Source: Chloroflexota bacterium (GTDB taxonomy: Bacteria > Chloroflexota > Dehalococcoidia > Lucifugimonadales > JACPCL1). Taken from it: a stretch of 64,000 nt of DNA. Below, piece by piece: positions 22,043-52,263 of the stretch. Position numbers and translations under genes: made by a program. The DNA lies in assembly GCA_016179765.1 (NCBI GenBank), contig JACPCL010000036.1, positions 134,110 to 198,109 of the forward strand, read 5' to 3'. Under the pieces are notes generated by a model, which worked only from the letters and a program-made list of their open reading frames with translations, ran no database searches and was not told the origin of the DNA. The first letter of the stretch is position 1; each line of letters begins with the position of its first letter.

Positions 22043-22192
22043 GACACTACCTCGCTGGGTGAGAAGGTAAGGAGAGGCAAGCTTTTTGTACAAGTTTGGA
22101 AAGAAATGATTGAGAGATAGTATAGCAGATTTACGGTTTGTCAATTATGCCCCATTGGGGCAGGCAAAGTAACAGCCCTGAGGGAGGGTTCC

Positions 22193-22341: not shown

Positions 22342-22419
22342 GGTGGGCGTGGCCTAGTGGTTTAAGGCGCCAGGTTGTGGCCCTGGAGATCGAGGGTTCA
22401 AATCCCTCCGTCCACCCCA
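22342..22419 (+). tRNA. tRNA-His (GUG)
   Basis: Cloverleaf folded by hand: G-1, acceptor GTGGGCG/CGTCCAC, anticodon loop TTGTGGC, T-arm GAGGG-TTCAAAT-CCCTC, encoded CCA. Confidence 0.85.
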
Positions 22420-22428
22420 TTCCGTAGC

Positions 22429-22460
22429 TTTAAGGAGGCTCCAGAGGAGCCTCCCTCTCC
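22429..22460. repeat. hairpin repeat family B, simple copy
   Basis: tttaaggaggctccagaggagcctccctctcc directly after tRNA-His, followed by a short atcaatca tandem. Confidence 0.65.
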
Positions 22461-22517
22461 TTATCAATCAATATCAATCAATCTTCCTCCTTCCTCACAC
22501 CCTCTGGCGGGATACGT

Positions 22518-22594
22518 GCGCCCGTAGCTCAGCGGATCAGAGCATCGGTCTTCGGAACCGGGGGTCGTGGGTTCGAATCCCACCGGGCGCACCA
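22518..22594 (+). tRNA. tRNA-Arg (UCG)
   Basis: Acceptor GCGCCCG/CGGGCGC, D-arm GCTC..GAGC, anticodon loop CTTCGGA, T-arm GTGGG-TTCGAAT-CCCAC, discriminator A, encoded CCA. Confidence 0.9.
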
Positions 22595-22837
22595 TTGCTC
22601 TGATACCGTACAGCCCCATGGCACACGCAGGGGCCTCTTCCTTTGGCCGTTTGCTACCACTCTGCTACCGGATAGGTGCAAGCTGCACGTTTTCAGCCGC
22701 TCCCAGCCTTCACTACGGGGGCGCTGACCTCACCCCCTTGTGTTCCCCCTCTCCTAAAGGGGGCTTTGCCCGATAACTCGCCCTCTTGAAAAGAGAGTGG
22801 CAACTCTCGTTTTTCCCACCCACCTGCCCGCAAGGGT

Positions 22838-23008
22838 CTGTAGGGGATACCCCTACAACCCCAGGGGAAACCTGCGGTTTCCTCCACCTTCCCTTGGAGG
22901 CTCCGATTTTTCGGGCAAGGCCCCCGCCTCTTCGTCCGCCGCAGGCGGACGAAGGGCAGGCTCCGCGGCTTCGCCCCTCTGGACACCCCTTTTTTCAGCA
23001 CCCTACTG
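22838..23008. repeat. composite repeat, family C (plus an E-type palindrome)
   Basis: ctgtaggggatacccctac..., hairpin cgtccgccgcaggcggacg, then GGCTCCGCGGCTTCGCCCCTCTGGACACCCCTTTTTTCAGCACCCTACTG. Its tail overlaps the 3' end of the GltD-like gene. Confidence 0.65.
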
Positions 23009-24461
23009 CGGGGGCGCCGGCAGTAGGGGCTTTTCGCCTTTCGTTGAGGTATTGGTGGATCGCCTGGGCGGAACGCTTGCCGGCCCCGGCAGCCAGAATC
23101 ACGGTGGCCGAGCCGGTGACCACGTCTCCGCCGGCAAACACGCCTGGTTTGCTGGTGGCGCCCGTCGCAGGGTCCGCTTTGATGTGCCCATACCGGTCCG
23201 AAACCAGGTCTTGCGTGGACTGGGACACCGTGGGGTTGGGGTTTGTCCCAAGGGCCATGACCACCGTGTCTACCTCCATGAGGAACTCGGAGCCTGCCAC
23301 GGGAAGGGGACGGCGTCTGCCGGACTCGTCTGGGGATCCCAGTTCCATACGGATGCACTCCATGCCACGCACCCAGCCATCGTCCGAACCCACCAGTCGG
23401 ACAGGGTTGGTAAGCCACTGGAAGAGGGCGCCTTCCTCCGCGGCGTGGTGGTAGTCCTCAATACGGGCGGTCATCTCCTTTTCCGTGCGGCGATAGACGA
23501 TGTAGGCCTCCCTTGCGCCGACGCGGATGGCGGTGCGCACCACGTCCATGGCCGTATCGCCGGCGCCGACGACCACAACGCGCTGGCCCTTTTTGACCGG
23601 GGTGTCAAACTCTGGGAAGCGATTGGCCTTCATGAGGTTGATTCGGGTCAGGAACTCGTTGGCGGAGTAGACGCCTTTCAGGTTCTCGCCGGGGATGCCC
23701 ATGAACTTGGGCGAGCCCGCGCCGCTTCCAATGAATACGGCGCCAAAGCCCATCTCGTGCATCAGTTGGTCAATGGTAATCGTTCTGCCGATGACCGTGT
23801 TGCACTGGATCTCCACCCCTTGCTCCCGCAGCTTGTTTATCTCCGCGGCCACGATGCTTTTGGGGAGGCGGAACTCTGGAATGCCGTACATCAACACGCC
23901 GCCGGGGACGTGCAATGCCTCAAAAAGGGTCACGTGGTAGCCGGTGCGGGCCAGGTCGCCCGCGGCGGTGAGGCTGGCTGGTCCGCTGCCTACCACCGCC
24001 ACCTTGGCGGTGGGTTTGCCGGGAAGGCTGTTCACCAGGTTGCGATGATAGCCGTTGACGCTGGTTTGCGCCCCTTGGTGGGCCAACTCATAGTCCGCCA
24101 CAAACCGCTCCAGCGCGCCGATGGCCACCGGCTCCTGTTTACCTTTGATGACGCACTTGAGCTCGCACTGGTGCTCTTGGGGGCACACCCTGCCACAGAT
24201 GGCCGGCAAGGAGTTGACCTGCTTGATGGCGCGGACGGCCTCCAGAGGTTTGCCTTCGGCAATGAGCTTGATAAAGTCTCTGATGGGCACTCCAACTGGA
24301 CACCCCGCCTCACAGTTGGGTTCCTGGCATAGAAGGCACCGTTGGGCCTCGGCGAGCGCCTGGGTGGGGCTGTACCCCAGGCTCACCTCTTGGAACCCCA
24401 GGCGGCGCTGAATAGGGTCCAGGGCTGGCAGGGGCGTTTTCTTGAGTTGCACCATGGGCAT
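22995..24461 (-). CDS. NADPH-dependent glutamate synthase beta chain-like oxidoreductase (NfnB/SudA/GltD type)
   Basis: N-terminal Cys clusters (CLLCQEPNCEAGCP), FAD/NAD Rossmann motifs (VAVVGSGPASLTAAGDLA, VVVVGAGDTAMD). Confidence 0.85.
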   Translation of the reverse strand: MPMVQLKKTPLPALDPIQRRLGFQEVSLGYSPTQALAEAQRCLLCQEPNCEAGCPVGVPIRDFIKLIAEGKPLEAVRAIKQVNSLPAICGRVCPQEHQCELKCVIKGKQEPVAIGALERFVADYELAHQGAQTSVNGYHRNLVNSLPGKPTAKVAVVGSGPASLTAAGDLARTGYHVTLFEALHVPGGVLMYGIPEFRLPKSIVAAEINKLREQGVEIQCNTVIGRTITIDQLMHEMGFGAVFIGSGAGSPKFMGIPGENLKGVYSANEFLTRINLMKANRFPEFDTPVKKGQRVVVVGAGDTAMDVVRTAIRVGAREAYIVYRRTEKEMTARIEDYHHAAEEGALFQWLTNPVRLVGSDDGWVRGMECIRMELGSPDESGRRRPLPVAGSEFLMEVDTVVMALGTNPNPTVSQSTQDLVSDRYGHIKADPATGATSKPGVFAGGDVVTGSATVILAAGAGKRSAQAIHQYLNERRKAPTAGAPAVGC

Positions 24462-24467
24462 AGTGGC

Positions 24468-25298
24468 TTATCCTCCCGCGGCGACAGCGGTGGTCAGGGC
24501 GGCGCGCTCCTCTTCGGCATAGGTCTTGGAGCGCACGATGGCTTCAGCGAAGTTGACCTGGTGGGCGTCAAAGAAGGGGCCGTCCACGCAGGCGAATTTC
24601 AACTGGCCGTCCACCGTAAGGCGGCAGGCCCCGCACATGCCCGTTCCATCCACCATGATGGGGTCCATGGAGACCTGGGTCTTGATTCCCAGGGGACGAG
24701 TCGTTTCAGCCACGGCCCGCATCATGGCGATGGGGCCAATGGCAACCACCTGGTCAAAGGCCATGCCAGCCCGGACGAGGGCTTCAAGTTGCCCGGTGAC
24801 AAATCCGTGGAAACCCTGGGAGCCGTCATCGGTGCACAGGTACGTGTGGTCGCTGCTAGCTCTGACCTCTTTCTCCAGGATGATGAGGTCGCGGGTGCGC
24901 GCACCAATGATGGAGCACACCTCAACGCCCCTGGCAGCAAGCTCCTTGGCGAGGGAGAGGATGGCGCCCGTCCCGAAGCCGCCGCCCACCAAGGCAGCTT
25001 GGCCGTGTTTCGGTAGCTCTACAGGACGCCCCAAAGGGCCAACGAAGTCCAGTATGCGGTCGCCGCGCTCCAGAGACCGCAGCAAGTGGGTGGTCTTGCC
25101 CACCACCTGGACCACGATCGTAACGAGGCCCTTTGACCTGTTGGAATCGGTGATGGTCACGGGGATACGCTCTCCCTGTTGATTCACCCGGATCATGACG
25201 AACTGGCCCGGCTGGGCGTTGCGGGCTATAAGGGGAGCATTCACCTCAAAAAGGGAGGTTATGGGTGTCAGGTCCCGTTTTTCAACGATGATTGCCAC
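24468..25298 (-). CDS. ferredoxin-NADP reductase-like FAD/[2Fe-2S] subunit (NfnA/SudB/PyrK type)
   Basis: PyrK-like fold, RIPVTI FAD-binding region, C-terminal cluster motif GTGMCGACR...C. Confidence 0.8.
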   Translation of the reverse strand: MAIIVEKRDLTPITSLFEVNAPLIARNAQPGQFVMIRVNQQGERIPVTITDSNRSKGLVTIVVQVVGKTTHLLRSLERGDRILDFVGPLGRPVELPKHGQAALVGGGFGTGAILSLAKELAARGVEVCSIIGARTRDLIILEKEVRASSDHTYLCTDDGSQGFHGFVTGQLEALVRAGMAFDQVVAIGPIAMMRAVAETTRPLGIKTQVSMDPIMVDGTGMCGACRLTVDGQLKFACVDGPFFDAHQVNFAEAIVRSKTYAEEERAALTTAVAAGG

Positions 25299-25313
25299 GC
25301 CTGCTCCTCGTCG

Positions 25314-27605
25314 CTACAAATCAGGGTGGTCGTGCATGGCCTTCAGCCTGCGCCAGCGTCGCTCTACCTCCGCCGCAAACCGTTCCAGTGGCTCCCGGTA
25401 CTCGGGCAGGGTCAGGTGGCGCGTCTTGCCCATTGCTCCAAGCCACTGTGTTACCGGTATCTTGCGTCCCACCGTAGCGGGGTCGTAAGTGATGGTCGTC
25501 ACCCCCTCTTCCACCTCATAGAGGGGGAAGAAGTTGCAGTCCACGGCGGCCTGGACAACGTCCGTCCCCGACTCGTCAGGGGCGCGCCAGTTCAGGGGGC
25601 AGGAGATCAGCACCTTGCCAAAGGCGAGGCCCTGGTTCTTGGCATACCACTGGGCCTTTGCCCCTTTTTTGACCAGGTCGTCGGCGTAGCCCTCCACGGA
25701 GGAGAAGACGTAAGGGATGTGGCAGGCAGCCATGATCTGAAGGGTATCCTTGTGGTGGAAGGTCTTGCCGCCCTGGGCCTGTCCCACATGGCTGGTGGAG
25801 GTCATGTGCCCCAGGGGCGTGGAGTAGCTGAGCTGGCTACCGGTATTCATGTAGCCCTGGTTATCGTATTCAACGATGACCATGTTGTGGTTTCGCAGCG
25901 CCGCGCCAATGGTGGGGCCCATGCCAATGTCCATACCGCCGTCCCCGGTAATCATCACAAAGGTAATGTCTTCACCCTCGGGCAGTTCCCCCCGTGCCTT
26001 ACGCTCCAAGAACATCTCCACGAGACCGGAGAGGGTAGCCGACCCGTTTTGGAAGAGGTTGTGGATGTAGGTGACCCGGTGGGCGCTGAAAGGGTAACCC
26101 GTGGTGACCACCATGGCGCACCCCGTCTGATACAGCACCACAATGTCCCCCTCCATGCCCTTGAAAAGCTGGTCAAGGGCGGGGAAGATGCCACACCCGG
26201 GGCAGGCTCCGTGTCCCGGGGCAAAGACCCGTGAACGCACCGCCAGCTTCCACAGGGGTGGGGTGCGCACCTGGACCTTGCCGGAAGCGGCATCTTTTTC
26301 CACGCTCACCAGTCCCGGGCGCATCTCTTCCCTGGTGAAAGGGGGCAGCACCGGGGAGAGGGCGCCGTTGCGCGAGTTGCCTGGGGTGACGCCATGATAG
26401 TCAAAGGGGATATGCACCTTGCCTGAGCTAGCGGCGGCTAGGGCTAGCCGGAAGAGGGCCTCGGCGTCTTCATACAGGAAGTCCTTACCGCCCAGGCCAT
26501 AGATGCGGCTCAGGCACAGGGTCTTGTTGTCAGGGTCGTCCTTCAGGGCCGACTTGACCTCGTGGGTCAGGGCGTTGCCCTGCCCGCCGTAGGAGTCCGC
26601 GCGCTCGGCAATGAGGACAGCGCCCACGTGTTTGAGCGCCTCACGAATAGCATCGGCCGGGAAGGGACGCAGGACGTTCGGGCTCAAGACGCCCACCTTC
26701 TTGCCCTGCTTTCGCAACTCGTCGGCCACGTCTTTAGCCGTTTCGGCGGCGGAGTTCAGCAAGACCAGGACGGCCTCCGCGTCCTCTATCCGGTAGGCGT
26801 CTACCACGGGATAGCTGCGCCCGGAGAGCGTAGCATACTGCTCAAAGACCTGGGGCAGCACCCGCAGCGCCGCGTCCATAGCTAGCTTTTGCTGGTACTT
26901 GTTGTTGATAAGGTCAGGGTCATTCATATAGGGGCCCACGGTGATGGGGTTGCGCGGGTCCAGGGTTGAGCGCTGCGCCTGGAAGGGACCCAGGAACCCT
27001 TGCACCGGTTGGCGGTCAGGAAAATAGCTGACGCGTCGCTTCTGGTGGCTCGTGAAGAAGCCGTCGTAGGCCACGATGACGGGTAGGCGGACATTCGGAT
27101 GCTCGCCTAGGCGCACGGCGACGACGTTCATATCGTAGACCGCTTGGGGGTCCCGGGCCAGGAGTACAATCCAGCCTGTGTTCAGGGAGAAGTAGAGGTC
27201 AGAGTGGTCGCCGCGGATGTCCAGGGGCCCACTGACGGAGCGCGTGACCAGGTCCATGACCATGGGGTAGCGGGTGCCGGACTGGACGGGGAACTGCTCC
27301 AGGGCGTAGAGGAAGCCGTTGGCGCTGGTGGCGTTGAACACCCTGCCGCCGCCTGTGGAGGCGCCGTAGCAAATGCCCGCCCCGCCGTGCTCCCCATCGG
27401 CGGCGATCATGCGTATCTGATGCTCCCCCTGAGCAAACATTTCGTCCAGGTATTCGGCAATCTCCGTGGAAGGGGTGATGGGGTAGTAGCCCATCACGTG
27501 GAAGTTGATGTGGTTGGCGGCCAGGGCCGCCATCTCATTGCCGCTTTTGAAATCGGTAAGCTGAGGGAGGGCGCTCTGGCGAGCATGGCGTTCAGTAATG
27601 AGCAT
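25314..27605 (-). CDS. 2-oxoacid:ferredoxin oxidoreductase, fused alpha-beta subunits
   Basis: 763 aa. Alpha-type N-terminal half, and a beta-type TPP-binding C-terminal half (GHGACPGCG, ITGDGG.DIG). Confidence 0.8.
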   Translation of the reverse strand: MLITERHARQSALPQLTDFKSGNEMAALAANHINFHVMGYYPITPSTEIAEYLDEMFAQGEHQIRMIAADGEHGGAGICYGASTGGGRVFNATSANGFLYALEQFPVQSGTRYPMVMDLVTRSVSGPLDIRGDHSDLYFSLNTGWIVLLARDPQAVYDMNVVAVRLGEHPNVRLPVIVAYDGFFTSHQKRRVSYFPDRQPVQGFLGPFQAQRSTLDPRNPITVGPYMNDPDLINNKYQQKLAMDAALRVLPQVFEQYATLSGRSYPVVDAYRIEDAEAVLVLLNSAAETAKDVADELRKQGKKVGVLSPNVLRPFPADAIREALKHVGAVLIAERADSYGGQGNALTHEVKSALKDDPDNKTLCLSRIYGLGGKDFLYEDAEALFRLALAAASSGKVHIPFDYHGVTPGNSRNGALSPVLPPFTREEMRPGLVSVEKDAASGKVQVRTPPLWKLAVRSRVFAPGHGACPGCGIFPALDQLFKGMEGDIVVLYQTGCAMVVTTGYPFSAHRVTYIHNLFQNGSATLSGLVEMFLERKARGELPEGEDITFVMITGDGGMDIGMGPTIGAALRNHNMVIVEYDNQGYMNTGSQLSYSTPLGHMTSTSHVGQAQGGKTFHHKDTLQIMAACHIPYVFSSVEGYADDLVKKGAKAQWYAKNQGLAFGKVLISCPLNWRAPDESGTDVVQAAVDCNFFPLYEVEEGVTTITYDPATVGRKIPVTQWLGAMGKTRHLTLPEYREPLERFAAEVERRWRRLKAMHDHPDL

Positions 27606-27629
27606 AGTGGTGTCTCCTGGTGCAGCCGC

Positions 27630-28742
27630 TCAATGGTGATGGCGCTCGCCATTCTGGGAGAAGCCTTGCAGATGCGGAAAGAGGGGCACGCTATGCCGCT
27701 CAGCGTACCCCTCTTCTTCTCGCTCTGTGGAGAGCGCCAAGGTGGGACAGGCGTCAATGCACTTCAAGCACCCCTTACAGAATTGGTAGTCAATGCCCTT
27801 GAGGCGTATAGCCTCAACGCCATCCCCCTTTCGTTCCACGGCCCAGACGAAGCAGAAATCGGGGCAGACCAGGTCGCACAGAGCGCAGTCCACGCACCTT
27901 TCCCGGTGGAAAGCGGGCAGGAAGCCGTTGCGGGAGACTGAAAGGTCTTTCAGCGCCGTGTTCCCCGGATTCATGACAGCGCCGCCCAGGGGGGCATCCA
28001 GATAGCCGAAAGGTGGAGCGTGTCTGGCGTAGTTTTGGGGGACTGCGGCGGCTGCGTGGCTGAAGTCCTCCAATGCCAGCTCTTGAAATCCGCGGTCAAA
28101 GGCACGAAGGTTGCTTGCAAGCAATTGCGGATAGCGTTCACCCAGGGTAGCCTGAATGACCTCTTTGACGGCTTCAGGCTTGATGAAGCCGCTGGCCCGA
28201 GCCACAGCCCCCAGCATGACGGTGTTGACCCTGGAGCTTTCCTCCACGGCAATTGCTAGGGCGTTGACGGCGCCAACCTTGGCCGCGGGCCGCCCCAGGC
28301 CGTCCCACACCTGTGAGGGCGAGCGCAGAGAGTTTACGATGATGGCGCCCTCTGGCAGCAGTCCCCAGAGGACTGGCTCGGTCCTCACCAACCCCTCGTG
28401 AAAGACGGCCACCAGGTGGGGCCTATCCACGGGGCTGCTGGTGCGTACCTCCTGCTCTGCCGCGCAGAAGCGGACGTAGGCCTTGACGGGGGAGCCTTTT
28501 TTTTCAGAGCCATAGGAGGAGAAGTTGGCCCCATTGAGTCCCATGCGAAGGACGCCGGCCTGAGCGAGGATCTGCCCAGCCACGTGGGCACCCAGGCCAC
28601 CTATGGATTCCAAACGTATACCGAAGAACCCCTGGTTGTCGGTTTGCGGTAGCTGAGTGCGGGACTTGATGTGGGTTTTCGCCACGCTGTTTGCCGTATC
28701 CGTAAGTATTTGCGGGCATGGCGGCCCTTGCCAGGCGTGCAT
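27630..28742 (-). CDS. 2-oxoacid:ferredoxin oxidoreductase, fused gamma-delta subunits
   Basis: Gamma-type GIRLESIGGLGAHVAGQIL followed by two 4Fe-4S ferredoxin motifs (CVDCALCDLVCP, CKGCLKCIDACP). Start uncertain. Confidence 0.8.
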   Translation of the reverse strand: MHAWQGPPCPQILTDTANSVAKTHIKSRTQLPQTDNQGFFGIRLESIGGLGAHVAGQILAQAGVLRMGLNGANFSSYGSEKKGSPVKAYVRFCAAEQEVRTSSPVDRPHLVAVFHEGLVRTEPVLWGLLPEGAIIVNSLRSPSQVWDGLGRPAAKVGAVNALAIAVEESSRVNTVMLGAVARASGFIKPEAVKEVIQATLGERYPQLLASNLRAFDRGFQELALEDFSHAAAAVPQNYARHAPPFGYLDAPLGGAVMNPGNTALKDLSVSRNGFLPAFHRERCVDCALCDLVCPDFCFVWAVERKGDGVEAIRLKGIDYQFCKGCLKCIDACPTLALSTEREEEGYAERHSVPLFPHLQGFSQNGERHHH

Positions 28743-28757
28743 CCCCGTTAACCAGGG

Positions 28758-28786
28758 ATATTACCGATGCCGAGAAACGAAGTCAA
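28758..28786 (-). promoter_or_regulatory. sigma-70-like promoter candidate for the OFOR operon
   Basis: Minus strand reads TTGACT-17 nt-TAATAT within an AT-rich spacer. It lies very close to the annotated ATG (28742), which implies a very short leader or a downstream start. Confidence 0.4.
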
Positions 28787-28910
28787 TATAAAATGCATTG
28801 ATGTTTTGGATTGGAGCCATAGAAAACACTAGGGGTCAAAAAAAGGGTTGCTTACCTTGCGCGACTCACTTCTGAGGAAAGGCAGCGCCGACGGTCCCGA
28901 CCTGTCAGGA

Positions 28911-29582
28911 CTATCCCGTGCCCGTGGGGGGCTGCCCCCGGAAGCGGTAGCCCACGTTCCACACCGTCTCAATGTAGCTCTGGCCAGGGCCCTCAATCTT
29001 GCTGCGCAGGCGGCGGATGTGCACGTCCACGGTGCGGGTACCGCCGAAGTAATCGTACTCCCATATCTGGTTCAGCAGGGTCTCCCGGGAGAAGACGCGG
29101 CCAGGGCTGGAGGCCAGCAGGCACAGGAGCTGGTACTCCTTGAAGGTAAGTTGCACCCGCTGGCTACGGAGGAACACCTCGTACCGTTCCAGGTCAATGC
29201 GCAGGTCGCCCGTCTCCACAACCTTCTCGCCAGTCTGGGCCGTGCTCTGGCGCGTAGCCTGCCGGATGCGGGCGGAAACCTCTCCGGCGCGGCTGGGGAG
29301 AAGGATGAAGTCGGTGGCGCCCCAGGAGTGGTCATAGCGGGAGAGATGCCGGGAGGGGAGGGCGCACAGAAGGGGGATGGCCAGCTCCTGGCAGCGCTGC
29401 CCCAGGGGAGCCACGTCCCGCTGGGGCGAGATGCTTAGGTCAATCAGGGCGGCCTGGTGCTCCTTGGTGACCTCCTCCAGTGCCCTCGCCAGGGTATAGG
29501 ACACGCCTTCCTCATCCAGGGTGCGGAGGAGGCCGCCGTCTGGATCGCCGTCCTTGGTGAAGATAGCCAGGTGATATGGCAT
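28911..29582 (-). CDS. OmpR/PhoB-family winged-helix regulator with atypical (pseudo-)receiver domain
   Basis: C-terminal wHTH (LTFKEYQLLCLL...TVDVHIRRLRSKI..VWNVGYRF). The receiver-like N-terminus keeps the LIDLS Asp but lacks the DD pair context and the conserved Thr and Lys (PLLCALPS, DFILLP). Confidence 0.75.
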   Translation of the reverse strand: MPYHLAIFTKDGDPDGGLLRTLDEEGVSYTLARALEEVTKEHQAALIDLSISPQRDVAPLGQRCQELAIPLLCALPSRHLSRYDHSWGATDFILLPSRAGEVSARIRQATRQSTAQTGEKVVETGDLRIDLERYEVFLRSQRVQLTFKEYQLLCLLASSPGRVFSRETLLNQIWEYDYFGGTRTVDVHIRRLRSKIEGPGQSYIETVWNVGYRFRGQPPTGTG

Positions 29583-29763
29583 AGGGGTATAGCCATGAGG
29601 CCGCAGCCCTGTTGCGGCGGAATGCAGCACCCGACCATTATAGGGCCATGGGCTGCGGGGCGTAATGGCTGGGCTTTTTGGGGTTGTGAAAAAAGGGACA
29701 ACCCACCTGGACCTTTCGCGAATCCTTGACCACCTTCCAGGTGTGTGCTAGCCTTTCTCCATA

Positions 29764-30113
29764 GGCGACGACGGAGTCCAGTACGCAGGCCCTCCTGAGC
29801 CAGCGAGTCCGGTCCGGTGAAAGCGGACATCAAGGCCCCTGCCGAAGATCCCTCCCGAGCCTCCCGCCCAAAGCCTTCCATTGTGATTCCGAGCGTAGCG
29901 AGGAATCTCTCCTGGTAAGAGATTCATTCGGTCGGGCCGACCCCATCGGCCCTCCCTCAGAATGACAAGGTGAGCGAGTAGACCGGGACGGAGTTGTCCT
30001 CCGTTAACGCGGACAGGGCGTGCTAGCGCCGCACGAGTGCTCCCCATGGCATGGGGGCAAAAAGGGTGGTACCACGGGATTCGTGTCCCGTCCCTTTAGG
30101 GACGGGATTTTTG
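29764..30113 (+). promoter_or_regulatory. T-box riboswitch leader (probable Ile specifier) with terminator
   Basis: Stem I elements (GGCGACGACGGAG..CAGUA, AGCGAGUCC..GGUGAAAGCGGAC, closing CUCCCGAGCC..CGCC). Specifier region CGAAGAUCC. T-box motif AGGGTGGTACCACG at 30063-30076. Terminator tcccgtccc-ttta-gggacggga + T5 at 30086-30112. Confidence 0.75.
29881..29970. repeat. inverted-pair repeat family D inside the T-box leader
   Basis: gtgattccgagcgtagcgaggaatctc ... gattcattcgg...ccctcagaatgacaagg. Same family as 50677-50848 and 54924-55235. Confidence 0.65.
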
Positions 30114-30125
30114 TTACCCACTGAT

Positions 30126-30165
30126 TCTCCCTCTCCCTTGATGGGAGAGGGCTAGGGTGAGGGTG
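30126..30165. repeat. hairpin-plus-tail repeat family A
   Basis: tctccctctccc-ttgat-gggagaggg + ctagggtgagggtg, between the T-box terminator and the HAD gene start. Confidence 0.65.
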
Positions 30166-30879
30166 ATGATTTCGCTTCCAAAAGCCCTCTTGCTTGACCT
30201 GGACAACACGGTCCTGGCCTTTGACCAGGCGGTGGAGCAGTCGTGGGTCAAAGTGGCTACGGCCTATGCCCCGAAACTGGAGGGCATAACCTTCCAGCGC
30301 CTGCTGGAAGCCCTCCTCCGCAGCCGCGACCGTTTCTGGGCCGACCCCGTCCGTAACCGGTGGGGGCGCAACAACCCAGGGGAGGCTCACCGTCAGGTGG
30401 TGCGCGCCGCCCTGGCGGACCTGGGCCTGCGTAAGGCGTCCCTTGCCGATGACATCGCCCGGTCCCATACCAATACCTTTGACAGCACCGTGGCCCCCTT
30501 TCCGGGCGCGCTGGAGACCCTGGAACGCCTCCGACAGCAGGGTGTCCGCCTGGCCCTGGTCTCCAACGGCGGCGCAGAGGCGCAGCGGCGCAAGGTCAGC
30601 AAGTTTCGCTTAGAGACACTGGTGGATGCCATCTTCATAGAAGGGGAGCTGGGCTTTGGCAAGCCCGAAGCCCGCATCTTCCGGCAGGCATTGGAGCGCC
30701 TGGGCGCATCCCCCGCCGAGGCCTGGATGGCCGGCGACAACCTGGAGCACGACGTTGCGCCAGCCCAAGCCCTGGGGATGACAGGGATATGGGTGGACTG
30801 GCAAGGCAGGGGGCTGCCTCCGGGGAGCGCAGTGAGGCCGGACAGGGTGGTGCGCGGAATAAGGGAGTTGCTGCCGTAA
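30166..30879 (+). CDS. HAD family hydrolase
   Basis: MISLPKALLLDLDNTV (motif I DxDxT), SNG (motif II) and GDN..HD (motif IV) contexts. Confidence 0.8.
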   Translation: MISLPKALLLDLDNTVLAFDQAVEQSWVKVATAYAPKLEGITFQRLLEALLRSRDRFWADPVRNRWGRNNPGEAHRQVVRAALADLGLRKASLADDIARSHTNTFDSTVAPFPGALETLERLRQQGVRLALVSNGGAEAQRRKVSKFRLETLVDAIFIEGELGFGKPEARIFRQALERLGASPAEAWMAGDNLEHDVAPAQALGMTGIWVDWQGRGLPPGSAVRPDRVVRGIRELLP

Positions 30880-30882
30880 GCC

Positions 30883-30927
30883 GACCTCACCCCCTGTAGT
30901 CCCCCTCCCACTTCAGGGGAGGGGGAC
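30883..30927. repeat. family A repeat, left inverted copy flanking the DUF559 gene
   Basis: gACCTCACCCCCTgtag + tccccctccc-acttca-ggggaggggga. Tail on the 5' side. Confidence 0.7.
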
Positions 30928-30935
30928 AGAGAGTT

Positions 30936-31352
30936 GTGATGAGAAGGATACAAAAACCGAGAACTGGGTTGGATGTGAAGGGTATTGTTACAGACCAAGA
31001 CCTACCTGAAGAAAAACGTGTAGCCGCAAGGCAACTGCGTAAGGATATGACTGAGGCTGAACGTCGCTTGTGGCAGGCGTTACGCAACGGCCAGATGAAC
31101 GGCCATCGCTTCAGGAGACAGCAAGTCCTTGATGGCTACATCGTTGATTTTTACTGCCACAGCCTCGGTCTGGTTGTTGAGGTGGATGGACCAGTCCATG
31201 ACCAGCAACAGGAATATGACCAGGCACGAGACAAAACATTAGCCATGAGAGGGTTGACCATTCTCAGATTCAAGAACCAAGAAGTAATGGATGACATCCT
31301 CACCGTCTTGCGGCGAATTTCTACATATGCACTCAAGCAACCAACAAACTGA
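30936..31352 (+). CDS. DUF559 (Vsr-like endonuclease fold) domain protein
   Basis: RQLRKDMTEAERRLWQALR...GHRFRRQQVLDGYIVDFYCHSLGLVVEVDG..H is the typical DUF559 pattern. Visibly AT-richer than its neighbours. Confidence 0.8.
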   Translation: MMRRIQKPRTGLDVKGIVTDQDLPEEKRVAARQLRKDMTEAERRLWQALRNGQMNGHRFRRQQVLDGYIVDFYCHSLGLVVEVDGPVHDQQQEYDQARDKTLAMRGLTILRFKNQEVMDDILTVLRRISTYALKQPTN

Positions 31353-31362
31353 TTATCCCATA

Positions 31363-31404
31363 GTCCCCCCTCCCACTTTAGGGGAGGGGGCTAGGGGGTG
31401 AGGT
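31363..31404. repeat. family A repeat, right inverted copy flanking the DUF559 gene
   Basis: tcccccctccc-acttta-ggggaggggg + ctAGGGGGTGAGGT. Tail on the 3' side, the exact reverse complement of the 12-nt tail core at 30884-30895. Confidence 0.7.
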
Positions 31405-31411
31405 AAGAGCC

Positions 31412-34400
31412 ATGACCACCTTCAATCCCGTCAATCCACGTCCGGATTTCCCCGCCATGGAGCGGGAGCGCCTTGCCTGGTGGGACCAGACAGGCATGGT
31501 GCAGAAGTACCTCCGCCGCAACGAACAGGCGGAGAAACGCTTCTCCTTCATTGACGGTCCCATCACCGCCAACAACCCCATGGGCGTGCATCACGCATGG
31601 GGCCGCACCTACAAGGACATCTGGCAGCGCTTCAAGACTATGCAGGGCTACCGCCAGCGCTACCAGAATGGCTTTGACGGCCAGGGTCTGTGGGTTGAAG
31701 TTGAAGTTGAAAAAGAGCTGGGCTTCACGTCCAAAAAGGATATTGAAGCCTTTGGCATTGACCGCTTCGTAGAGCTGTGCAAGGAGCGTGTGCGCAAATT
31801 TGCGGGCGTACAAACGGCGCAATCCATCCGGCTGGGCTACTGGATGGACTGGGACAACTCCTACCACACCATGTCTGACGAGAACAATTACACTATCTGG
31901 CGCTTCCTGAAGGTGTGCCATGAGCGCGGCTGGCTGTATGAAGGCACGGACGTGATGCCCTGGTGCCCCCGCTGCGGCACCGGCATCTCCAATCAGGAGA
32001 TAGCTACCGAGGGGTACGTTGAATTGGAGCACGCATCGCCCTACCTCCGATTGCCCTTGGAAGGGCGTTCGAGGGAGGCGTTGCTCGTCTGGACAACCAC
32101 CCCATGGACGCTGAGTTCCAACGTTGCCGCTGCGGTCAACCCAACCCTGACCTACGCCAAAGTGAGGCAAGGCGATGAGACGCTGTACCTGGCGAAGAGC
32201 CGGCTTGGCGCCCTTCGTGGGAGCTACGTCGTAGAAGAGGAGCTGCCAGGTTCTGCGCTGGTTGGGCTGCTGTATCGCGGCCCCTACGATGAGCTACCCG
32301 CTCAGCAAGGCGTTGTGCATCGCGTTATCCCCTGGGATCAGGTGAGCGCGGATGAGGGGACCGGTATCGTGCACATCGCACCTGGGGCCGGTGCGGAGGA
32401 CTTTGTGCTGGGGAAGGAACATAGGCTGGCCGTTATTGCGCCGCTGGACGACGCTGGCGTATTTGTGGAGGGCTTTGGGTGGTTGACGGGAAGGAACGCC
32501 GCCGAGGCGCCGGACGCCATCTTTGCTGACCTGCGCCAGAAAGGCCTGCTGTACCACGTGGAGCGCTACCGGCACCGCTATCCGACCTGCTGGCGGTGCA
32601 GCACCGAGCTGGTCTTCCGTCTGGTGAGCGAGTGGTTCATCTCCATGAAGGACCTCCGGCGCCTTATCGCGGACGTCTCCCGCAAGGTCCGCTGGGTACC
32701 CGAGTTTGGCATGGAGCGGGAGCTGGACTGGCTTCGGAACATGAACGACTGGATGATCTCCAAGAAGCGCTACTGGGGGCTTGCGTTGCCTATCTACAAG
32801 TGCGTCTCCTGCGGCCACTTTGAGGTCATCGGCAGTGAGACGGAGCTGAAGCAGCGCGCCGTGGAAGGGTGGGAGCAGTTTGAGGGGCACTCGCCTCACC
32901 GTCCCTGGGTAGACGCGGTCAAGATAACCTGTCCCTCATGCGGCGCCAAGGTGTCAAGGATCGCCGACGTGGGGAATCCGTGGCTGGACGCAGGCATCGT
33001 CCCCTTCTCCACCCTCGCCTACCGCAACGATCGGGACTCCTGGCAGGAGTGGTTTCCCGCCGACTGGATATCGGAGAGTTTTCCAGGGCAGTTCCGCAAC
33101 TGGTTCTACTCTCTGCTCACCATGTCCACCGTGCTGGAAAACCGGGAGCCCTTTAGGTGCGTCTTCAGCTATGGCCTGATGCGTGACGAGAAGGGCGAGG
33201 AGATGCACAAGAGCAAGGGGAACGCCATCTGGTTTGATGATGCGGCGGAGAAGGCGGGCGTGGACGCCATGCGGTGGCTGTACTTCTCCTGCAATCCGGC
33301 GGCGAACCTGAACTTCGGCTATGGGACCATTGACGAGGTGCGCCGCCGCTTCATCATCCCTCTCTGGAACTGCTACTCCTTCTTCGTCACCTACGCCAAC
33401 CTGGACGGCTACAACCCCACGGCGTCGCCAAAGGTGCAGCCTGCCTCGGACATGGACCGCTGGATCATCTCGGAGCTACACCAGCTTATCAACGACGTGA
33501 CGCGCCATCTGGAGGAGTACAACCCCAGCGACGCCGCCCGCCGCATTGAGGAGTTCGTGGACAGGCTCTCCAACTGGTACATCCGCAGAAGCAGGCCCCG
33601 CTTCTGGAAACCTGTCCTGGGCGAAGCTGGAGGACAGCAAGGCGACCAGGACAAGCTCTCGGCGCACCAGACTCTGTACACCTGCCTGGTTACCATCACA
33701 AAGCTGATTGCGCCTGCCATCCCTTTCCTGGCCGAGGAGATGTACCAGAACCTCGTTTGCTCCGTAGACGACGCCACCCCGGACAGCGTCCACCTGGCGG
33801 ACTGGCCGGTGGCCGAGGCCGCCCTCATTGACGAAAGCCTGTCCGAGGGCATGCGCCTAGCGATGCACGTCGCCAGCATGGGGCGCGCCGCCCGCAGCAA
33901 GGCGGGTATCCGCGTGCGCCAGCCCCTATCGCGCATCTTGGTCACGACCCGCACCGCCCAGGAGTCCTCTGCATTGCAACGCCTGGCCCCCCATGTGCTG
34001 GACGAGCTGAACATCAAGGAGCTGGCCTCCCTGGGTAATGAAGGTGAGGTGGTGGAGTTTTCCCTGCGACCCAATCTGCCGCTCCTTGGCCCAAAGTATG
34101 GCAACCAGGTGGGCCGCATCCGCCAGGCCCTGGGCAGGGCCGACGCCGCCCGGGTCGCGACGGCCGTGCGCGGCGGTGACTCCGTGACGCTGGATGGCTT
34201 CACGCTCTTGCCTGAAGAGGTGCTGGTAGACGCCAGGGAGAAGCCAGGCTACGCCGTGGCCCTGGAGGGCAGCTACGTGGCGGCGGTGGACACTCACGTC
34301 ACGCCGGAGCTTGCGGACGAGGGCATGGCCCGGGAGCTGGTGCACCGCATCCAGAACATGCGCCGCTCCGCCGGCTACAACATCGCCGACCGCATCACGG

Positions 34401-34585
34401 TCTGGTACGGGGGCGACGCGAACATTGACCGTGTGGTAGAGAAGCACGCCGCCTACATCAAGGCGGAAACGCTGTCCCTGGAGCTGTCCCGGCTTGTCGG
34501 GACGCCGGAGGCCGGGGCGTATAGCGAGGCGCTAGAGATAGACGGCATGAAGGTGCGGCTGGCGGTGAGGAGGGGGAAGGTATGA
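31412..34585 (+). CDS. ileS: isoleucine--tRNA ligase (long, type 2-like form)
   Basis: 1057 aa. HIGH-type motif (PMGVHHAWG), KMSKS-type motif (HKSKGN), zinc-finger Cys pairs, editing domain. Confidence 0.92.
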   Translation: MTTFNPVNPRPDFPAMERERLAWWDQTGMVQKYLRRNEQAEKRFSFIDGPITANNPMGVHHAWGRTYKDIWQRFKTMQGYRQRYQNGFDGQGLWVEVEVEKELGFTSKKDIEAFGIDRFVELCKERVRKFAGVQTAQSIRLGYWMDWDNSYHTMSDENNYTIWRFLKVCHERGWLYEGTDVMPWCPRCGTGISNQEIATEGYVELEHASPYLRLPLEGRSREALLVWTTTPWTLSSNVAAAVNPTLTYAKVRQGDETLYLAKSRLGALRGSYVVEEELPGSALVGLLYRGPYDELPAQQGVVHRVIPWDQVSADEGTGIVHIAPGAGAEDFVLGKEHRLAVIAPLDDAGVFVEGFGWLTGRNAAEAPDAIFADLRQKGLLYHVERYRHRYPTCWRCSTELVFRLVSEWFISMKDLRRLIADVSRKVRWVPEFGMERELDWLRNMNDWMISKKRYWGLALPIYKCVSCGHFEVIGSETELKQRAVEGWEQFEGHSPHRPWVDAVKITCPSCGAKVSRIADVGNPWLDAGIVPFSTLAYRNDRDSWQEWFPADWISESFPGQFRNWFYSLLTMSTVLENREPFRCVFSYGLMRDEKGEEMHKSKGNAIWFDDAAEKAGVDAMRWLYFSCNPAANLNFGYGTIDEVRRRFIIPLWNCYSFFVTYANLDGYNPTASPKVQPASDMDRWIISELHQLINDVTRHLEEYNPSDAARRIEEFVDRLSNWYIRRSRPRFWKPVLGEAGGQQGDQDKLSAHQTLYTCLVTITKLIAPAIPFLAEEMYQNLVCSVDDATPDSVHLADWPVAEAALIDESLSEGMRLAMHVASMGRAARSKAGIRVRQPLSRILVTTRTAQESSALQRLAPHVLDELNIKELASLGNEGEVVEFSLRPNLPLLGPKYGNQVGRIRQALGRADAARVATAVRGGDSVTLDGFTLLPEEVLVDAREKPGYAVALEGSYVAAVDTHVTPELADEGMARELVHRIQNMRRSAGYNIADRITVWYGGDANIDRVVEKHAAYIKAETLSLELSRLVGTPEAGAYSEALEIDGMKVRLAVRRGKV

Positions 34586-34623
34586 TGCGACACGCATCAC
34601 AGATCCAATCAGCGAGGTGACCG

Positions 34624-35388
34624 ATGGGGCCCAAAGAACTGGCAACCTCCAACGAGATCTTGCGGGGCCTCGTTGGCTCTACTGTTCACGGCTTATCCGT
34701 GAAGGCTCAGGACGACCGTGATGAGATGGGCGTCTGCGTTGAGCCGCCGGACTACGTGTGCGGCCTGAACACCTTTGAGCAGTATGTCCACAGGACGCAG
34801 CCGGAAGGCGCCCGCAGCGGCCCGGGCGACCTTGACCTGGTCATCTACAGTCTGCGCAAATACGTGCGTTTGGCGGCCCGTGGCAACCCGACGGTGCTCC
34901 TCCTGCTGTTTGTCCCTGAGCAGGAGCTTGTTGTGAAGACGCCGCTTGGAGACCGCTTGCGCGCGGAGTCCCACCTCTTCGCCTCACGCGAGGCCGGGGC
35001 CAGATACCTTGGCTATCTGCAAAGCCAGCGGAGGCCGCTAATTGGGCAGAGCGGGAAGCGTAACCTGCCTAACCGGCCGGAACTGGTGGAGCAATATGGT
35101 TTCGATACCAAGTACGCAGGCCATACAGTGCGCCTGGGTTTCCAAGGTATTGAGTTTCTGCGCACTGGCCGGCTTTCGTTGCCCATGCGCGAGCCGGAGC
35201 GGATCTACGTACGGGACGTGCGCCTGGGCAAGTACTCCTTGCCAGAGGTGTTGAGGCAGGCGGAGGAGCTAGAGCGTGAGCTCCAGGACCTATGCACGAC
35301 CTCAAGCCTTCCGGAGAAGCCAGACTTGGGGAAGATTAACGACCTTCTCTACGAACTGCACACGGAGCATTGGGCAAGAAAACATTGA
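34624..35388 (+). CDS. predicted nucleotidyltransferase (Pol-beta superfamily, RlaP-like)
   Basis: N-terminal GS..HG...DD.D nucleotidyltransferase signature (GSTVHGLSVKAQDDRDEMGV). Family assignment from memory only. Confidence 0.55.
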   Translation: MGPKELATSNEILRGLVGSTVHGLSVKAQDDRDEMGVCVEPPDYVCGLNTFEQYVHRTQPEGARSGPGDLDLVIYSLRKYVRLAARGNPTVLLLLFVPEQELVVKTPLGDRLRAESHLFASREAGARYLGYLQSQRRPLIGQSGKRNLPNRPELVEQYGFDTKYAGHTVRLGFQGIEFLRTGRLSLPMREPERIYVRDVRLGKYSLPEVLRQAEELERELQDLCTTSSLPEKPDLGKINDLLYELHTEHWARKH

Positions 35389-50676: not shown

Positions 50677-50848
50677 TGTCATGCTGAGATCGTCATGTAC
50701 TGAGTCCGCAGACGAAGGAGGGACGACGAAGCATCTAGGGCGTATGCTTTGATGGCAAAGGCCAGAACAACAAAGGCACAATACCTAGCGAGTGGTCGTC
50801 ATAGGCATATGCCCTAGATGCTTCGTCGCTTCGCTCCTCAGCATGACA
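50677..50848. repeat. long inverted repeat, family D, in the pyrB-pyrC spacer
   Basis: Left arm tgtcatgctgag...gacgaagcatctagggcgtatgc. Right arm gcatatgccctagatgcttcgtc...ctcagcatgaca. Confidence 0.7.
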
Positions 50849-50880: not shown

Positions 50881-52263
50881 ATGATAAACACCACACAGCC
50901 TATCCTCATACGCGGGGCGCGCATCGTTGACCCCTCCCAGGGGTGGGACCGCGCCGGCGACCTGCTCATCGGAGACGGGCGCATCGTCAGGATGGCGCCG
51001 GCTATCCGCAACGGCAGCCTGCCAAAAGGTTGCGTCGTCGTGAACGGCGCGGGCCTGGTGGCCTGCCCCGGCTTCATTGACCTGCACGTCCACCTGCGAG
51101 AGCCGGGCTACGAAGACCATGAGACAATTTCCACGGGCGTCCAGGCGGCGGCCCGCGGCGGCTTCACCACCCTCTGCGCCATGCCCAACACCCGCCCGGC
51201 TATGGACAACGCCAGCGTGGTGGACTACGTCCTGCGGCGGGCGCGGGAGGCCAACGGCGTCCGCGTTCTGCCCATCGGCTGCGTCACCAAGGCGCGGGCC
51301 GGCCAGGAGCTCGCCGAGATGTGGGAGCTTGCCCAGGCGGGGGCCATTGGCTTTAGCGACGACGGCAGCCCCGTGGCAAACCCCCATCTGATGCGCCAGG
51401 CCCTGACCTACGCCCGGGGCCTGGACCTGCCCGTCATCAATCATCCGGAGGACCCGGCCCTCTCCCGGAGCGCCCCCATGAATGAAGGCCGCATCTCCAA
51501 CCGCCTGGGACTGGCCGGCTGGCCCGCCGTGGCCGAGGAGACCATGGTGGCGCGGGACATAGAGCTGGCGGCGCTCACTGGGGGCAGGCTGCACCTGGCC
51601 CACATCTCCACCGCCGGCTCCGTGGAGTTGGTGCGCCGGGCCAAGGAGCGCGGCCTGCCCGTGACGGCGGAGGCGACGCCCCACCACCTGACCCTCACCG
51701 AGGAGTGGGTGCGCGGCCACACCACCGAAGGGCCTGTGGCTGGCCCGCTGACCTACGCCGCCTACGACACCTCCACCAAGGTGAACCCACCCCTGCGCAC
51801 GCGGCGCGACGCCGAGGCCCTGCTGGCCGGCCTGCGGGATGGCGTCATAGACGCCATTGCCACCGACCATGCGCCCCACGCCGTCACCGTCAAACTGGTG
51901 ACCTTTGACGAGGCGGCCAGCGGCATCCCCGGCCTGGAGACGGCCTTTGGGGCGCTCATGACCCTGACGCACAAAGGTGATCTGCCTCTGATCACGCTGG
52001 TGGAGCGCATGACCCAGGGGCCACTGAAGGTGCTGGGTGGACGTGGCAGGGGCCTGGGCAGCCTGCGAGAAGGCTCCGTTGCCGATGTCACCCTCCTTCG
52101 CCTGGACGAGGAGTGGGTGGTGCGCGGCGCGGAGTTCGCCTCCAAGGGCAAGCAGACGCCCCTGGAGGGCGTGACCTTGAAGGGCAGGGTGGCAGCAACC
52201 ATTGCCGGAGGGCGAGTCGTGCATTCGCAAGTGACGGGGTTGGAGGCATCCGATAATACGTAG
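50881..52263 (+). CDS. pyrC: dihydroorotase
   Basis: MINTTQPILIRGARIVDP..., DLHVHLREPG, HISTAGS and DHAPH motifs. Track ORF start 50818 lies inside the repeat. Confidence 0.9.
   Translation: MINTTQPILIRGARIVDPSQGWDRAGDLLIGDGRIVRMAPAIRNGSLPKGCVVVNGAGLVACPGFIDLHVHLREPGYEDHETISTGVQAAARGGFTTLCAMPNTRPAMDNASVVDYVLRRAREANGVRVLPIGCVTKARAGQELAEMWELAQAGAIGFSDDGSPVANPHLMRQALTYARGLDLPVINHPEDPALSRSAPMNEGRISNRLGLAGWPAVAEETMVARDIELAALTGGRLHLAHISTAGSVELVRRAKERGLPVTAEATPHHLTLTEEWVRGHTTEGPVAGPLTYAAYDTSTKVNPPLRTRRDAEALLAGLRDGVIDAIATDHAPHAVTVKLVTFDEAASGIPGLETAFGALMTLTHKGDLPLITLVERMTQGPLKVLGGRGRGLGSLREGSVADVTLLRLDEEWVVRGAEFASKGKQTPLEGVTLKGRVAATIAGGRVVHSQVTGLEASDNT

Follow-up and report, generated by a model that had tools for sequence, protein, structure and literature searches.

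An isoleucine (Ile)-specific T-box leader (29759–30113) stands 1.3 kb upstream of ileS, the gene for isoleucine–tRNA ligase, in an uncultivated groundwater Dehalococcoidia bacterium (contig JACPCL010000036.1), and a HAD hydrolase gene and a DUF559 gene lie between the two. We analysed a 64-kb stretch of this contig (hereafter the window; positions are counted from its first nucleotide, and the features of the T-box locus all lie on its + strand) together with related ileS loci. The original prediction for this DNA described the leader as displaced from ileS by insertions, and left it undecided whether ileS is still regulated by read-through or has been uncoupled from the leader. We find that the leader is a genuine Ile T-box riboswitch. 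Judged from the gene order of relatives, its apparent displacement is an old operon architecture that is shared across a clade. The region most probably forms one transcription unit, in which ileS would remain under read-through control of the leader, and we assign this reading a probability of about 0.7.

The proposed mechanism is as follows. A promoter near 29726–29754 would drive transcription of the Ile-specific leader. Uncharged tRNA-Ile would pair with the AUC specifier through its GAU anticodon and with the UGGU of the antiterminator bulge through its NCCA end, which would stabilize the antiterminator at 30061–30097 and allow RNA polymerase to pass the terminator at 30085–30113 into HAD, DUF559 and ileS. 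With charged tRNA-Ile, the terminator would form and all three genes would be turned down. Control of ileS by the leader would persist in spite of the two passenger genes in between, which would have entered the operon no later than the common ancestor of one Dehalococcoidia sub-clade.

Identity and specificity of the leader

A cmscan search of 29650–30200 at an E-value threshold returned a match to the T-box model RF00230 at 29759–30098 (+ strand), which spans the full model (positions 1–219), is not truncated and scores 74.1 bits (E 3.1e-16). The Infernal search that had been proposed for confirming the leader has therefore yielded a full-length match, albeit one below 93 bits, the curated gathering cut-off of Rfam, which is an annotation threshold and not a structural feature. 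The score falls short because a 103-nucleotide (nt) insert in the Stem II region (29878–29980), left unaligned by cmscan, cannot be aligned to the model. Where Stem II is compact, related ileS leaders exceed the cut-off (105.1 bits in locus L006 and 95.5 bits in L072); the leaders of L161, L162, L163 and L001, clade members with inserts, score 63.7–79.4 bits. All length variation among the leaders of relatives is confined to this insert region, while the core elements are invariant in a seven-way alignment. The insert itself has no significant match elsewhere in the 64-kb window (best score 30, against 24–31 for shuffled sequences). Its metagenome depth is about 5-fold, and contigs from other loci whose depth equals that of this genome carry copies resembling 29903–29968. 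In L162, L163, L166 and L168, a copy of the hairpin repeat family described below lies inside Stem II of the leader.

Stem I (29764–29862 in the cmscan alignment) shows a GA (K-turn) base, a specifier loop of the form AGUA ... GAA-G-AUC-C, an AG bulge and a distal loop, GGUGAAAG, that fits GGUGNRA. The RF00230 alignment takes in CAGCGAGUCCG...GGUGAAAGCGGAC, which contain the AG bulge and the distal loop, as well as Stem III. Stem I is further supported by covariation, since 11 of its 23 pairs in an RNAalifold consensus of nine leaders carry compensatory double changes, with the specifier loop unpaired.

The specifier-region text, CGAAGAUCC at 29843–29851, can be read as GAU (Asp) or as AUC (Ile). 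For comparison, 160 related ileS loci were fetched; leaders were located by the T-box motif, and 98 of 113 leaders have a loop that fits a strict pattern. AUC is present in all 98 readable loops, while the base before it varies (A in 36, G in 27, U in 24 and C in 11); after it, C predominates (59) where a purine would be usual. Because AUC is invariant while the preceding base is not, and because the model's 8-nt register (GAA-N-codon-N, then the CUCC helix) places the codon at 29848–29850, the specifier is AUC. The GAU reading is an accident of the window sequence. The specifier thus matches the amino acid of the downstream ileS, and the preference for Ile over Asp, which had earlier been argued from UGGU and A73, is now shown by the conservation of AUC. 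In T-box leaders generally, the UGGN bulge pairs with the NCCA end of the tRNA, so that UGGU predicts discriminator A73, and bacterial tRNA-Ile has A73. ARAGORN detected neither tRNA-Ile nor tRNA-Asp genes in the window or in the fetched loci.

The regulatory half of the leader is of the transcription attenuation type. The T-box sequence AGGGUGGUACCACG (30063–30076 in the RF00230 alignment) lies in an antiterminator helix (30061–30097) that aligns in cmscan and folds at −16.2 kcal/mol into the canonical bulged helix, with the 7-nt bulge UGGUACC. The UGGU of this bulge, which had been noticed in the original prediction, occupies 30067–30070 and is present in 108 of the 113 leaders. The intrinsic terminator (30085–30113, with its hairpin at 30085–30108) was found both by a terminator scan and in the minimum-free-energy fold; it reads GUCCCGUCCC-UUUA-GGGACGGGAU followed by UUUUG, and 86 of the 113 related leaders carry the same terminator type under a strict pattern. 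The strand CCCGUCCC is used by the terminator as its 5' arm and by the antiterminator as its 3' arm, which makes the two folds mutually exclusive. The alignment and the folds together bear out the T-box that was recognized earlier, including its Stem I distal elements, T-box motif and terminator.

Gene order and its inheritance in relatives

Three genes follow the leader on the + strand, and the leader–HAD, HAD–DUF559 and DUF559–ileS spacers measure 52, 59 and 59 nt. The first gene of the operon (30166–30879) encodes a HAD-IA family hydrolase of 237 amino acids (PF00702, 1.2e-24, 88.2 bits; PF13419, 79.6 bits) with the sequence DLDNT, a DxDxT motif I, at its N-terminus. The protein passes the cut-offs of the generic HAD-IA models TIGR01549 and TIGR01509 of NCBIfam, and of no equivalog model. 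The second gene (30939–31352) encodes a DUF559 protein of 137 amino acids with a Vsr-like PD-(D/E)XK endonuclease fold (PF04480, 6.4e-38, 129.4 bits against a gathering score of 20.6; a weak match to PF18741 besides), and its GC content is 49–53% compared with 60–70% in the flanks. ileS itself (31412–34585) encodes an isoleucine–tRNA ligase of 1057 amino acids, termed type A in this analysis, which matches PF00133, PF08264 and PF19302 and passes the TIGR00392 equivalog model (708.6 bits against a cut-off of 621.4). The Pfam and TIGR matches agree with the gene order that had been read from the open reading frames, with HAD starting at 30166 and ileS at 31412.

The arrangement is real and not a chimera, since same-strain groundwater metagenome contigs from two separate studies span the junctions (29500–29940, 29923–30335 and 30138–31900) with zero differences. 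Two deviating joints were seen in the metagenomes. The joint 29968→30900, considered as a deletion variant, originates at a different locus that carries similar repeats (6 mismatches in 49 nt, side 28), and the joint 30079→31496 stems from a relative present at low depth.

Within the genome collection, the IleS closest to that of the window (75% identity) is encoded at L001, where a promoter, T-box, terminator and a single hairpin repeat precede ileS. This locus first suggested that the window carries a private insertion, an interpretation overturned by a HAD protein search that found relatives with HAD upstream of ileS. None of 80 genome loci had shown a HAD homolog as a passenger, and the HAD clade emerged only from that protein search; a scan of metagenome contigs returned no IleS closer than 70%. 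L161 repeats the order of the window, with a divergent response regulator, T-box, hairpin, HAD, hairpin, DUF559, hairpin and ileS, at identities of 79% for HAD, 78% for DUF559 and 94% over 220 amino acids for IleS. L162 has the same T-box–HAD–DUF559–ileS string (70% for HAD and 77% for DUF559), and the DUF559 orthologs of L161 and L162, at 76–78% identity, occupy the same slot as in the window. In L163–165 and L168, the T-box is followed by HAD and then ileS. The HAD–ileS spacer of L163 keeps the last ~40 codons of DUF559, and this 3' remnant rules out L163 as an empty site for DUF559. L166 has the order T-box, DUF559 (49%), HAD, an open reading frame of 511 amino acids on the opposite strand, and ileS, and L169 has HAD, an open reading frame of 166 amino acids and ileS on a contig that begins at HAD. 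HAD orthologs of 53–79% identity thus lie upstream of ileS in at least six other lineages (in L169 the leader is not covered), and HAD homologs at or below 49% identity are located away from ileS.

An IleS tree built from 154 loci groups the five type-A loci that carry HAD in a single clade (support 96), next to L001 and L081/L005. Against L161 and L162, the ratios of non-synonymous to synonymous substitution (dN/dS) are 0.22–0.31 for HAD, 0.08–0.18 for DUF559 and 0.065–0.09 for IleS, at dS of 0.45–1.9. Since dN/dS stays at 0.08–0.31 over such distances, HAD and DUF559 are long-standing, maintained genes under purifying selection. Of the earlier description of a leader displaced by insertions, the two genes between leader and ileS therefore stand, and a recent private event does not, given an order shared across the clade and purifying selection on both genes.

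Behind the T-box–HAD module, L163 (5881–9243) and L168 (5764–7914) carry a different IleS, termed type B, that is 44% (L163) and 37% (L168) identical to the IleS of the window. Type B forms a long branch outside all 152 others in the tree, yet it passes the ileS equivalog model, and it is widespread in Dehalococcoidia and SAR202. It is possible that ileS was replaced in place, or that the module moved.

Probable transcription unit and alternative readings

A candidate sigma-70-type promoter, TTGACC-N17-TAGCCT, lies at 29726–29754, with an expected start at ~29761. The motif CTTGAC(C/A)-N17-TA(G/C)(C/G)CT recurs at equal distance upstream of the leaders in the window, L161, L162, L163, L166, L168 and L001, and looser variants are present in L006 and L072. 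A relaxed promoter pattern has a single match in 29600–31450 of the window, at the leader, and no further match between leader and ileS in the window, L161, L162 or L163. The sole + strand terminator-like site in 29400–31700 is the T-box terminator. A permissive cmscan of 30850–31450 (E<=10) found no Rfam leader, only chance microRNA-type matches on the hairpins, so the description of the spacer before ileS as a repeat hairpin with no second leader holds. The comparison of related ileS loci for an adjacent T-box, proposed earlier, shows that adjacency is the commonest state in the class Dehalococcoidia: ~82 of the 113 leaders stand no more than 330 nt from ileS, and in ~31 one or more genes intervene. 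An intact Ile leader upstream of passengers and ileS in those ~31 loci would be hard to explain unless the leader still governs ileS. Between the two outcomes originally left open, read-through is favoured by one conserved promoter and by the absence of an internal promoter of the same type and of an internal terminator; uncoupling is kept as a rival.

Several observations weigh against the read-through reading. RF00230 is absent from a scan of the whole window at the gathering score. The promoter scans rely on consensus patterns, to which Chloroflexota promoters may not conform, and a stricter scan missed the leader's own promoter. None of the RNA sequencing runs searched for the locus contains it. 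The spacer hairpins, at −30 to −33 kcal/mol, could pause, process or partly terminate transcripts. Lastly, coupling may be broken in at least one lineage, that of L166, where the opposite-strand open reading frame of 511 amino acids (L166:5723–7258, minus strand, without a Pfam match) between HAD and ileS should interrupt T-box read-through.

One rival is an uncoupled operon, in which the T-box would control only HAD, and perhaps DUF559, while ileS would be expressed mainly from an unrecognised promoter of its own in the DUF559 3' end or in the spacer with the third hairpin. The weakness of promoter scans as tests leaves room for such a promoter; ileS of L166 must be expressed in another way; and L163 has retained the DUF559 3' end, hairpin 3 and the ribosome-binding site before ileS though the rest of DUF559 is deleted. 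This last feature is, however, equally explained by an incidental deletion end-point, and a promoter-like site of the leader type is absent from the interval in four lineages. An Ile leader for a generic HAD alone would also lack an obvious rationale, yet AUC and the core elements are invariant across the clade. We consider uncoupling unlikely on this evidence. Far less probable again, to the point of being scarcely credible, is that the T-box is a decaying relic, disabled by its 103-nt insert, in front of a constitutive operon. The sub-cut-off RF00230 score and the large Stem II insert would be expected of a relic, but the insert is confined to a region that varies in all relatives and leaves each functional element intact, leaders of relatives that carry other inserts reach similar scores and have been kept over dS of 0.45–1.9, and Stem I shows compensatory changes.

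Compatible with read-through is a further proposal, that HAD takes part in the metabolism of isoleucine or tRNA-Ile as a functional partner of ileS and is for this reason co-regulated with it. The pairing of T-box and HAD is kept down to 53% HAD identity, it precedes two IleS lineages as different as type A and type B, and the dN/dS of HAD is that of a constrained gene (0.22–0.31). On the other hand, only generic HAD-IA models match, with no link to a known step of the Ile pathway, and the more distant homologs (49% identity or less) are not found near ileS. The unrelated passengers in the same slot elsewhere (methyltransferase, MBL hydrolase, GNAT, AlaX-like and arrestin-like proteins) rather favour neutral or opportunistic hitch-hiking, and a dedicated role for HAD seems quite doubtful to us. 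The reading we prefer is still that of one transcription unit under read-through control.

Hairpin repeats, passenger genes and related systems

One palindromic family, GC-rich and without a U-tract, occurs in all three spacers of the operon, and its 3' arms (GGGTGAGG...) serve also as the ribosome-binding sites of HAD and ileS. Copy 1 (30111–30169, core 30129–30151; repeat family D1) contains the HAD ribosome-binding site in its 3' arm, CTAGGGTGAGGGTG, and folds at −32 kcal/mol (z −4.6), with an extended stem that pairs the HAD Shine–Dalgarno sequence and AUG; orthologous copies are present in L161 and L001. In this extended stem, the terminator U-tail and GUUACCC pair with the HAD ribosome-binding site and AUG, and copy 1 might in this way damp HAD translation on read-through transcripts. 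Copy 2 (30884–30927, −30.2 kcal/mol) is inverted, with its outer arm ACCTCACCCCCT on the 5' side, forms the left terminal inverted repeat of the DUF559 unit and is conserved in L161 and L162. Copy 3 (31362–31404, −33.4 kcal/mol) is kept directly before ileS in L161, L162 and L163; its outer arm, AGGGGGTGAGGT, includes the ribosome-binding site of ileS and repeats 30884–30895 perfectly in inverted orientation. A strict regular expression with three matches had made the hairpin appear specific to the locus, which was ruled out by metagenome depth and looser matching. The family is dispersed, as indicated by a metagenome depth of 25–30-fold over 30129–30166 with many different flanks and by further copies in the window near 22191, 40541 and 58885. 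The spacer hairpins are probably RNA-stability or processing elements and carriers of ribosome-binding sites, and not terminators.

DUF559 is enclosed by copies 2 and 3, which form inverted repeats of ~44 nt whose 12-nt outer arms match perfectly. Three independent DUF559 insertions are flanked by this one palindromic family (window 30884–31404, L166:4525–5000 and L002:5150–5990). The outer arms match within each element, as ACCTCACCCCC/GGGGGTGAGGT in the window and as an own variant, ACCTAACCCC/GGGGGTTAGGT, in L166, and in L002 a full element stands on either side. By analogy with RAYT/REPIN systems, the leader–ileS interval could be a preferred landing site for a mobile DUF559 nuclease and its palindromic repeats: the resident DUF559 gene, inherited vertically and strongly constrained by purifying selection, would spread or maintain the hairpins, which would in turn mediate the gain and loss of passengers such as HAD and supply ileS with ribosome-binding or processing signals. 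We regard this as a speculative and rather improbable scenario. If true, it would explain why the T-box–HAD module persists before two IleS lineages.

In Proteobacteria, intercistronic REP/BIME hairpins are well known, as is the association of REP/REPIN elements with RAYT, a Y1/HUH transposase. The window resembles these systems in its GC-rich palindromes without U-tracts in operon spacers, in the dispersal of the family and in one conserved gene of nuclease type (dN/dS 0.08–0.18 for DUF559) flanked by inverted copies. It differs in that the flanked gene is DUF559 (PF04480, PD-(D/E)XK, Vsr-like) and not a Y1/HUH transposase, and the resemblance is one of architecture, seen at the level of sequence.

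The slot between leader and ileS has received many other genes. On the IleS tree, the adjacent and displaced states are separated by at least 15 changes (gains or losses). The passenger families are unrelated to one another: a methyltransferase in at least 11 loci, an AlaX-like protein in 7 (six of them with GNAT), HAD in 7, DUF559 in 5, an MBL-fold hydrolase in 3, and singletons; an arrestin-like protein is also among the passengers. The commonest passenger is a class I S-adenosylmethionine-dependent methyltransferase of ~270 amino acids (N-terminal HWTHRLFVE) between the Ile T-box and ileS, observed in L017, L021, L023, L031, L037–L039, L042, L051, L089, L091, L092 and L119, with ~7 gains or losses on the IleS tree. 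Another Dehalococcoidia/Anaerolineales group (L072:2344–4038, and also L078, L079, L080, L113 and L121) has the order Ile T-box, GNAT acetyltransferase, AlaX-like protein, ileS, and L156 has the AlaX-like gene only. The AlaX-like protein contains a tRNA-editing domain (the C-terminal part of PF01411, and PF07973), and is a tRNA-related passenger under Ile control.

Outside the leader–ileS interval, an RlaP-type nucleotidyltransferase gene (34586–35388, same strand) starts 38 nt after ileS with no terminator predicted between them, and may be co-transcribed with the T-box operon. On the other side of the locus, two tRNA genes directly adjoin the response-regulator gene in L161 (89–1098). In the window (22343–29630), a 2-oxoacid:ferredoxin oxidoreductase/Nfn-like operon (~22995–28742) separates a tRNA-His/tRNA-Arg pair from that gene, and ~6 kb has been gained or lost here between L161 and the window. 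Further downstream, a PyrR binding site (RF00515, 48681–48803, 57.4 bits against a gathering score of 54) lies upstream of pyr genes. A long palindrome at 50715–50839 probably represents one more repeat element in a pyr spacer; microRNA models match it by chance, symmetrically on the two strands. A T-box-like 13-mer nearby, at 50941, is not a T-box.

The Bacillus subtilis cysE-cysS operon is a T-box operon with a distal synthetase. Synthetases as second genes of T-box operons have been reported in Firmicutes, for example for cysteine and asparagine tRNA ligase genes (PMC2494555), and comparative genomics has associated an Ile T-box with ileS in Dehalococcoides (Wels et al., 2008; PMC2494555). 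Because both a distal synthetase in T-box operons and the Dehalococcoides Ile T-box are already in the literature, the arrangement is of a known kind. The Dehalococcoides leader agrees with that of the window in phylum and class, in Ile specificity and in being of the terminator/antiterminator type; the window adds HAD and DUF559 in between, the 103-nt Stem II insert and a sub-cut-off Rfam score. The Firmicutes operons likewise begin with a non-synthetase gene and reach the synthetase by read-through. Their first gene usually belongs to the pathway of the same amino acid, whereas the window has a generic HAD and then a selfish-looking endonuclease-fold gene with no known isoleucine link. ileS T-boxes of Actinobacteria share the AUC specifier, the control of ileS and a phylum outside Firmicutes, but these are of the translational type and sequester the ribosome-binding site (10.1101/2020.06.17.157016), in contrast with the intrinsic terminator with a U-run and the full-length Stem I of the window leader. 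What is new is the clade-wide inheritance of the T-box–HAD–(DUF559)–ileS order, which is otherwise a modest variation on known biology, and the association of DUF559 with flanking palindromes may prove a more original lead.

For annotation, these observations mean that the Ile T-boxes of this class can fall below the Rfam cut-off owing to repeat inserts in Stem II, and can lie 1–3 kb from the synthetase. Pipelines that consider only the next gene, or distances below 500 nt, would assign the riboswitch to HAD and call ileS unregulated. For the biology of the class, they indicate that an essential gene under riboswitch control repeatedly tolerates unrelated genes between leader and target, with no fewer than 15 gains or losses across a single class, and that such passengers would become responsive to isoleucine starvation by position. 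HAD, the methyltransferase, the MBL-fold hydrolase and the GNAT plus AlaX-like pair are natural constructs for asking whether passengers of this kind are neutral or adaptive.

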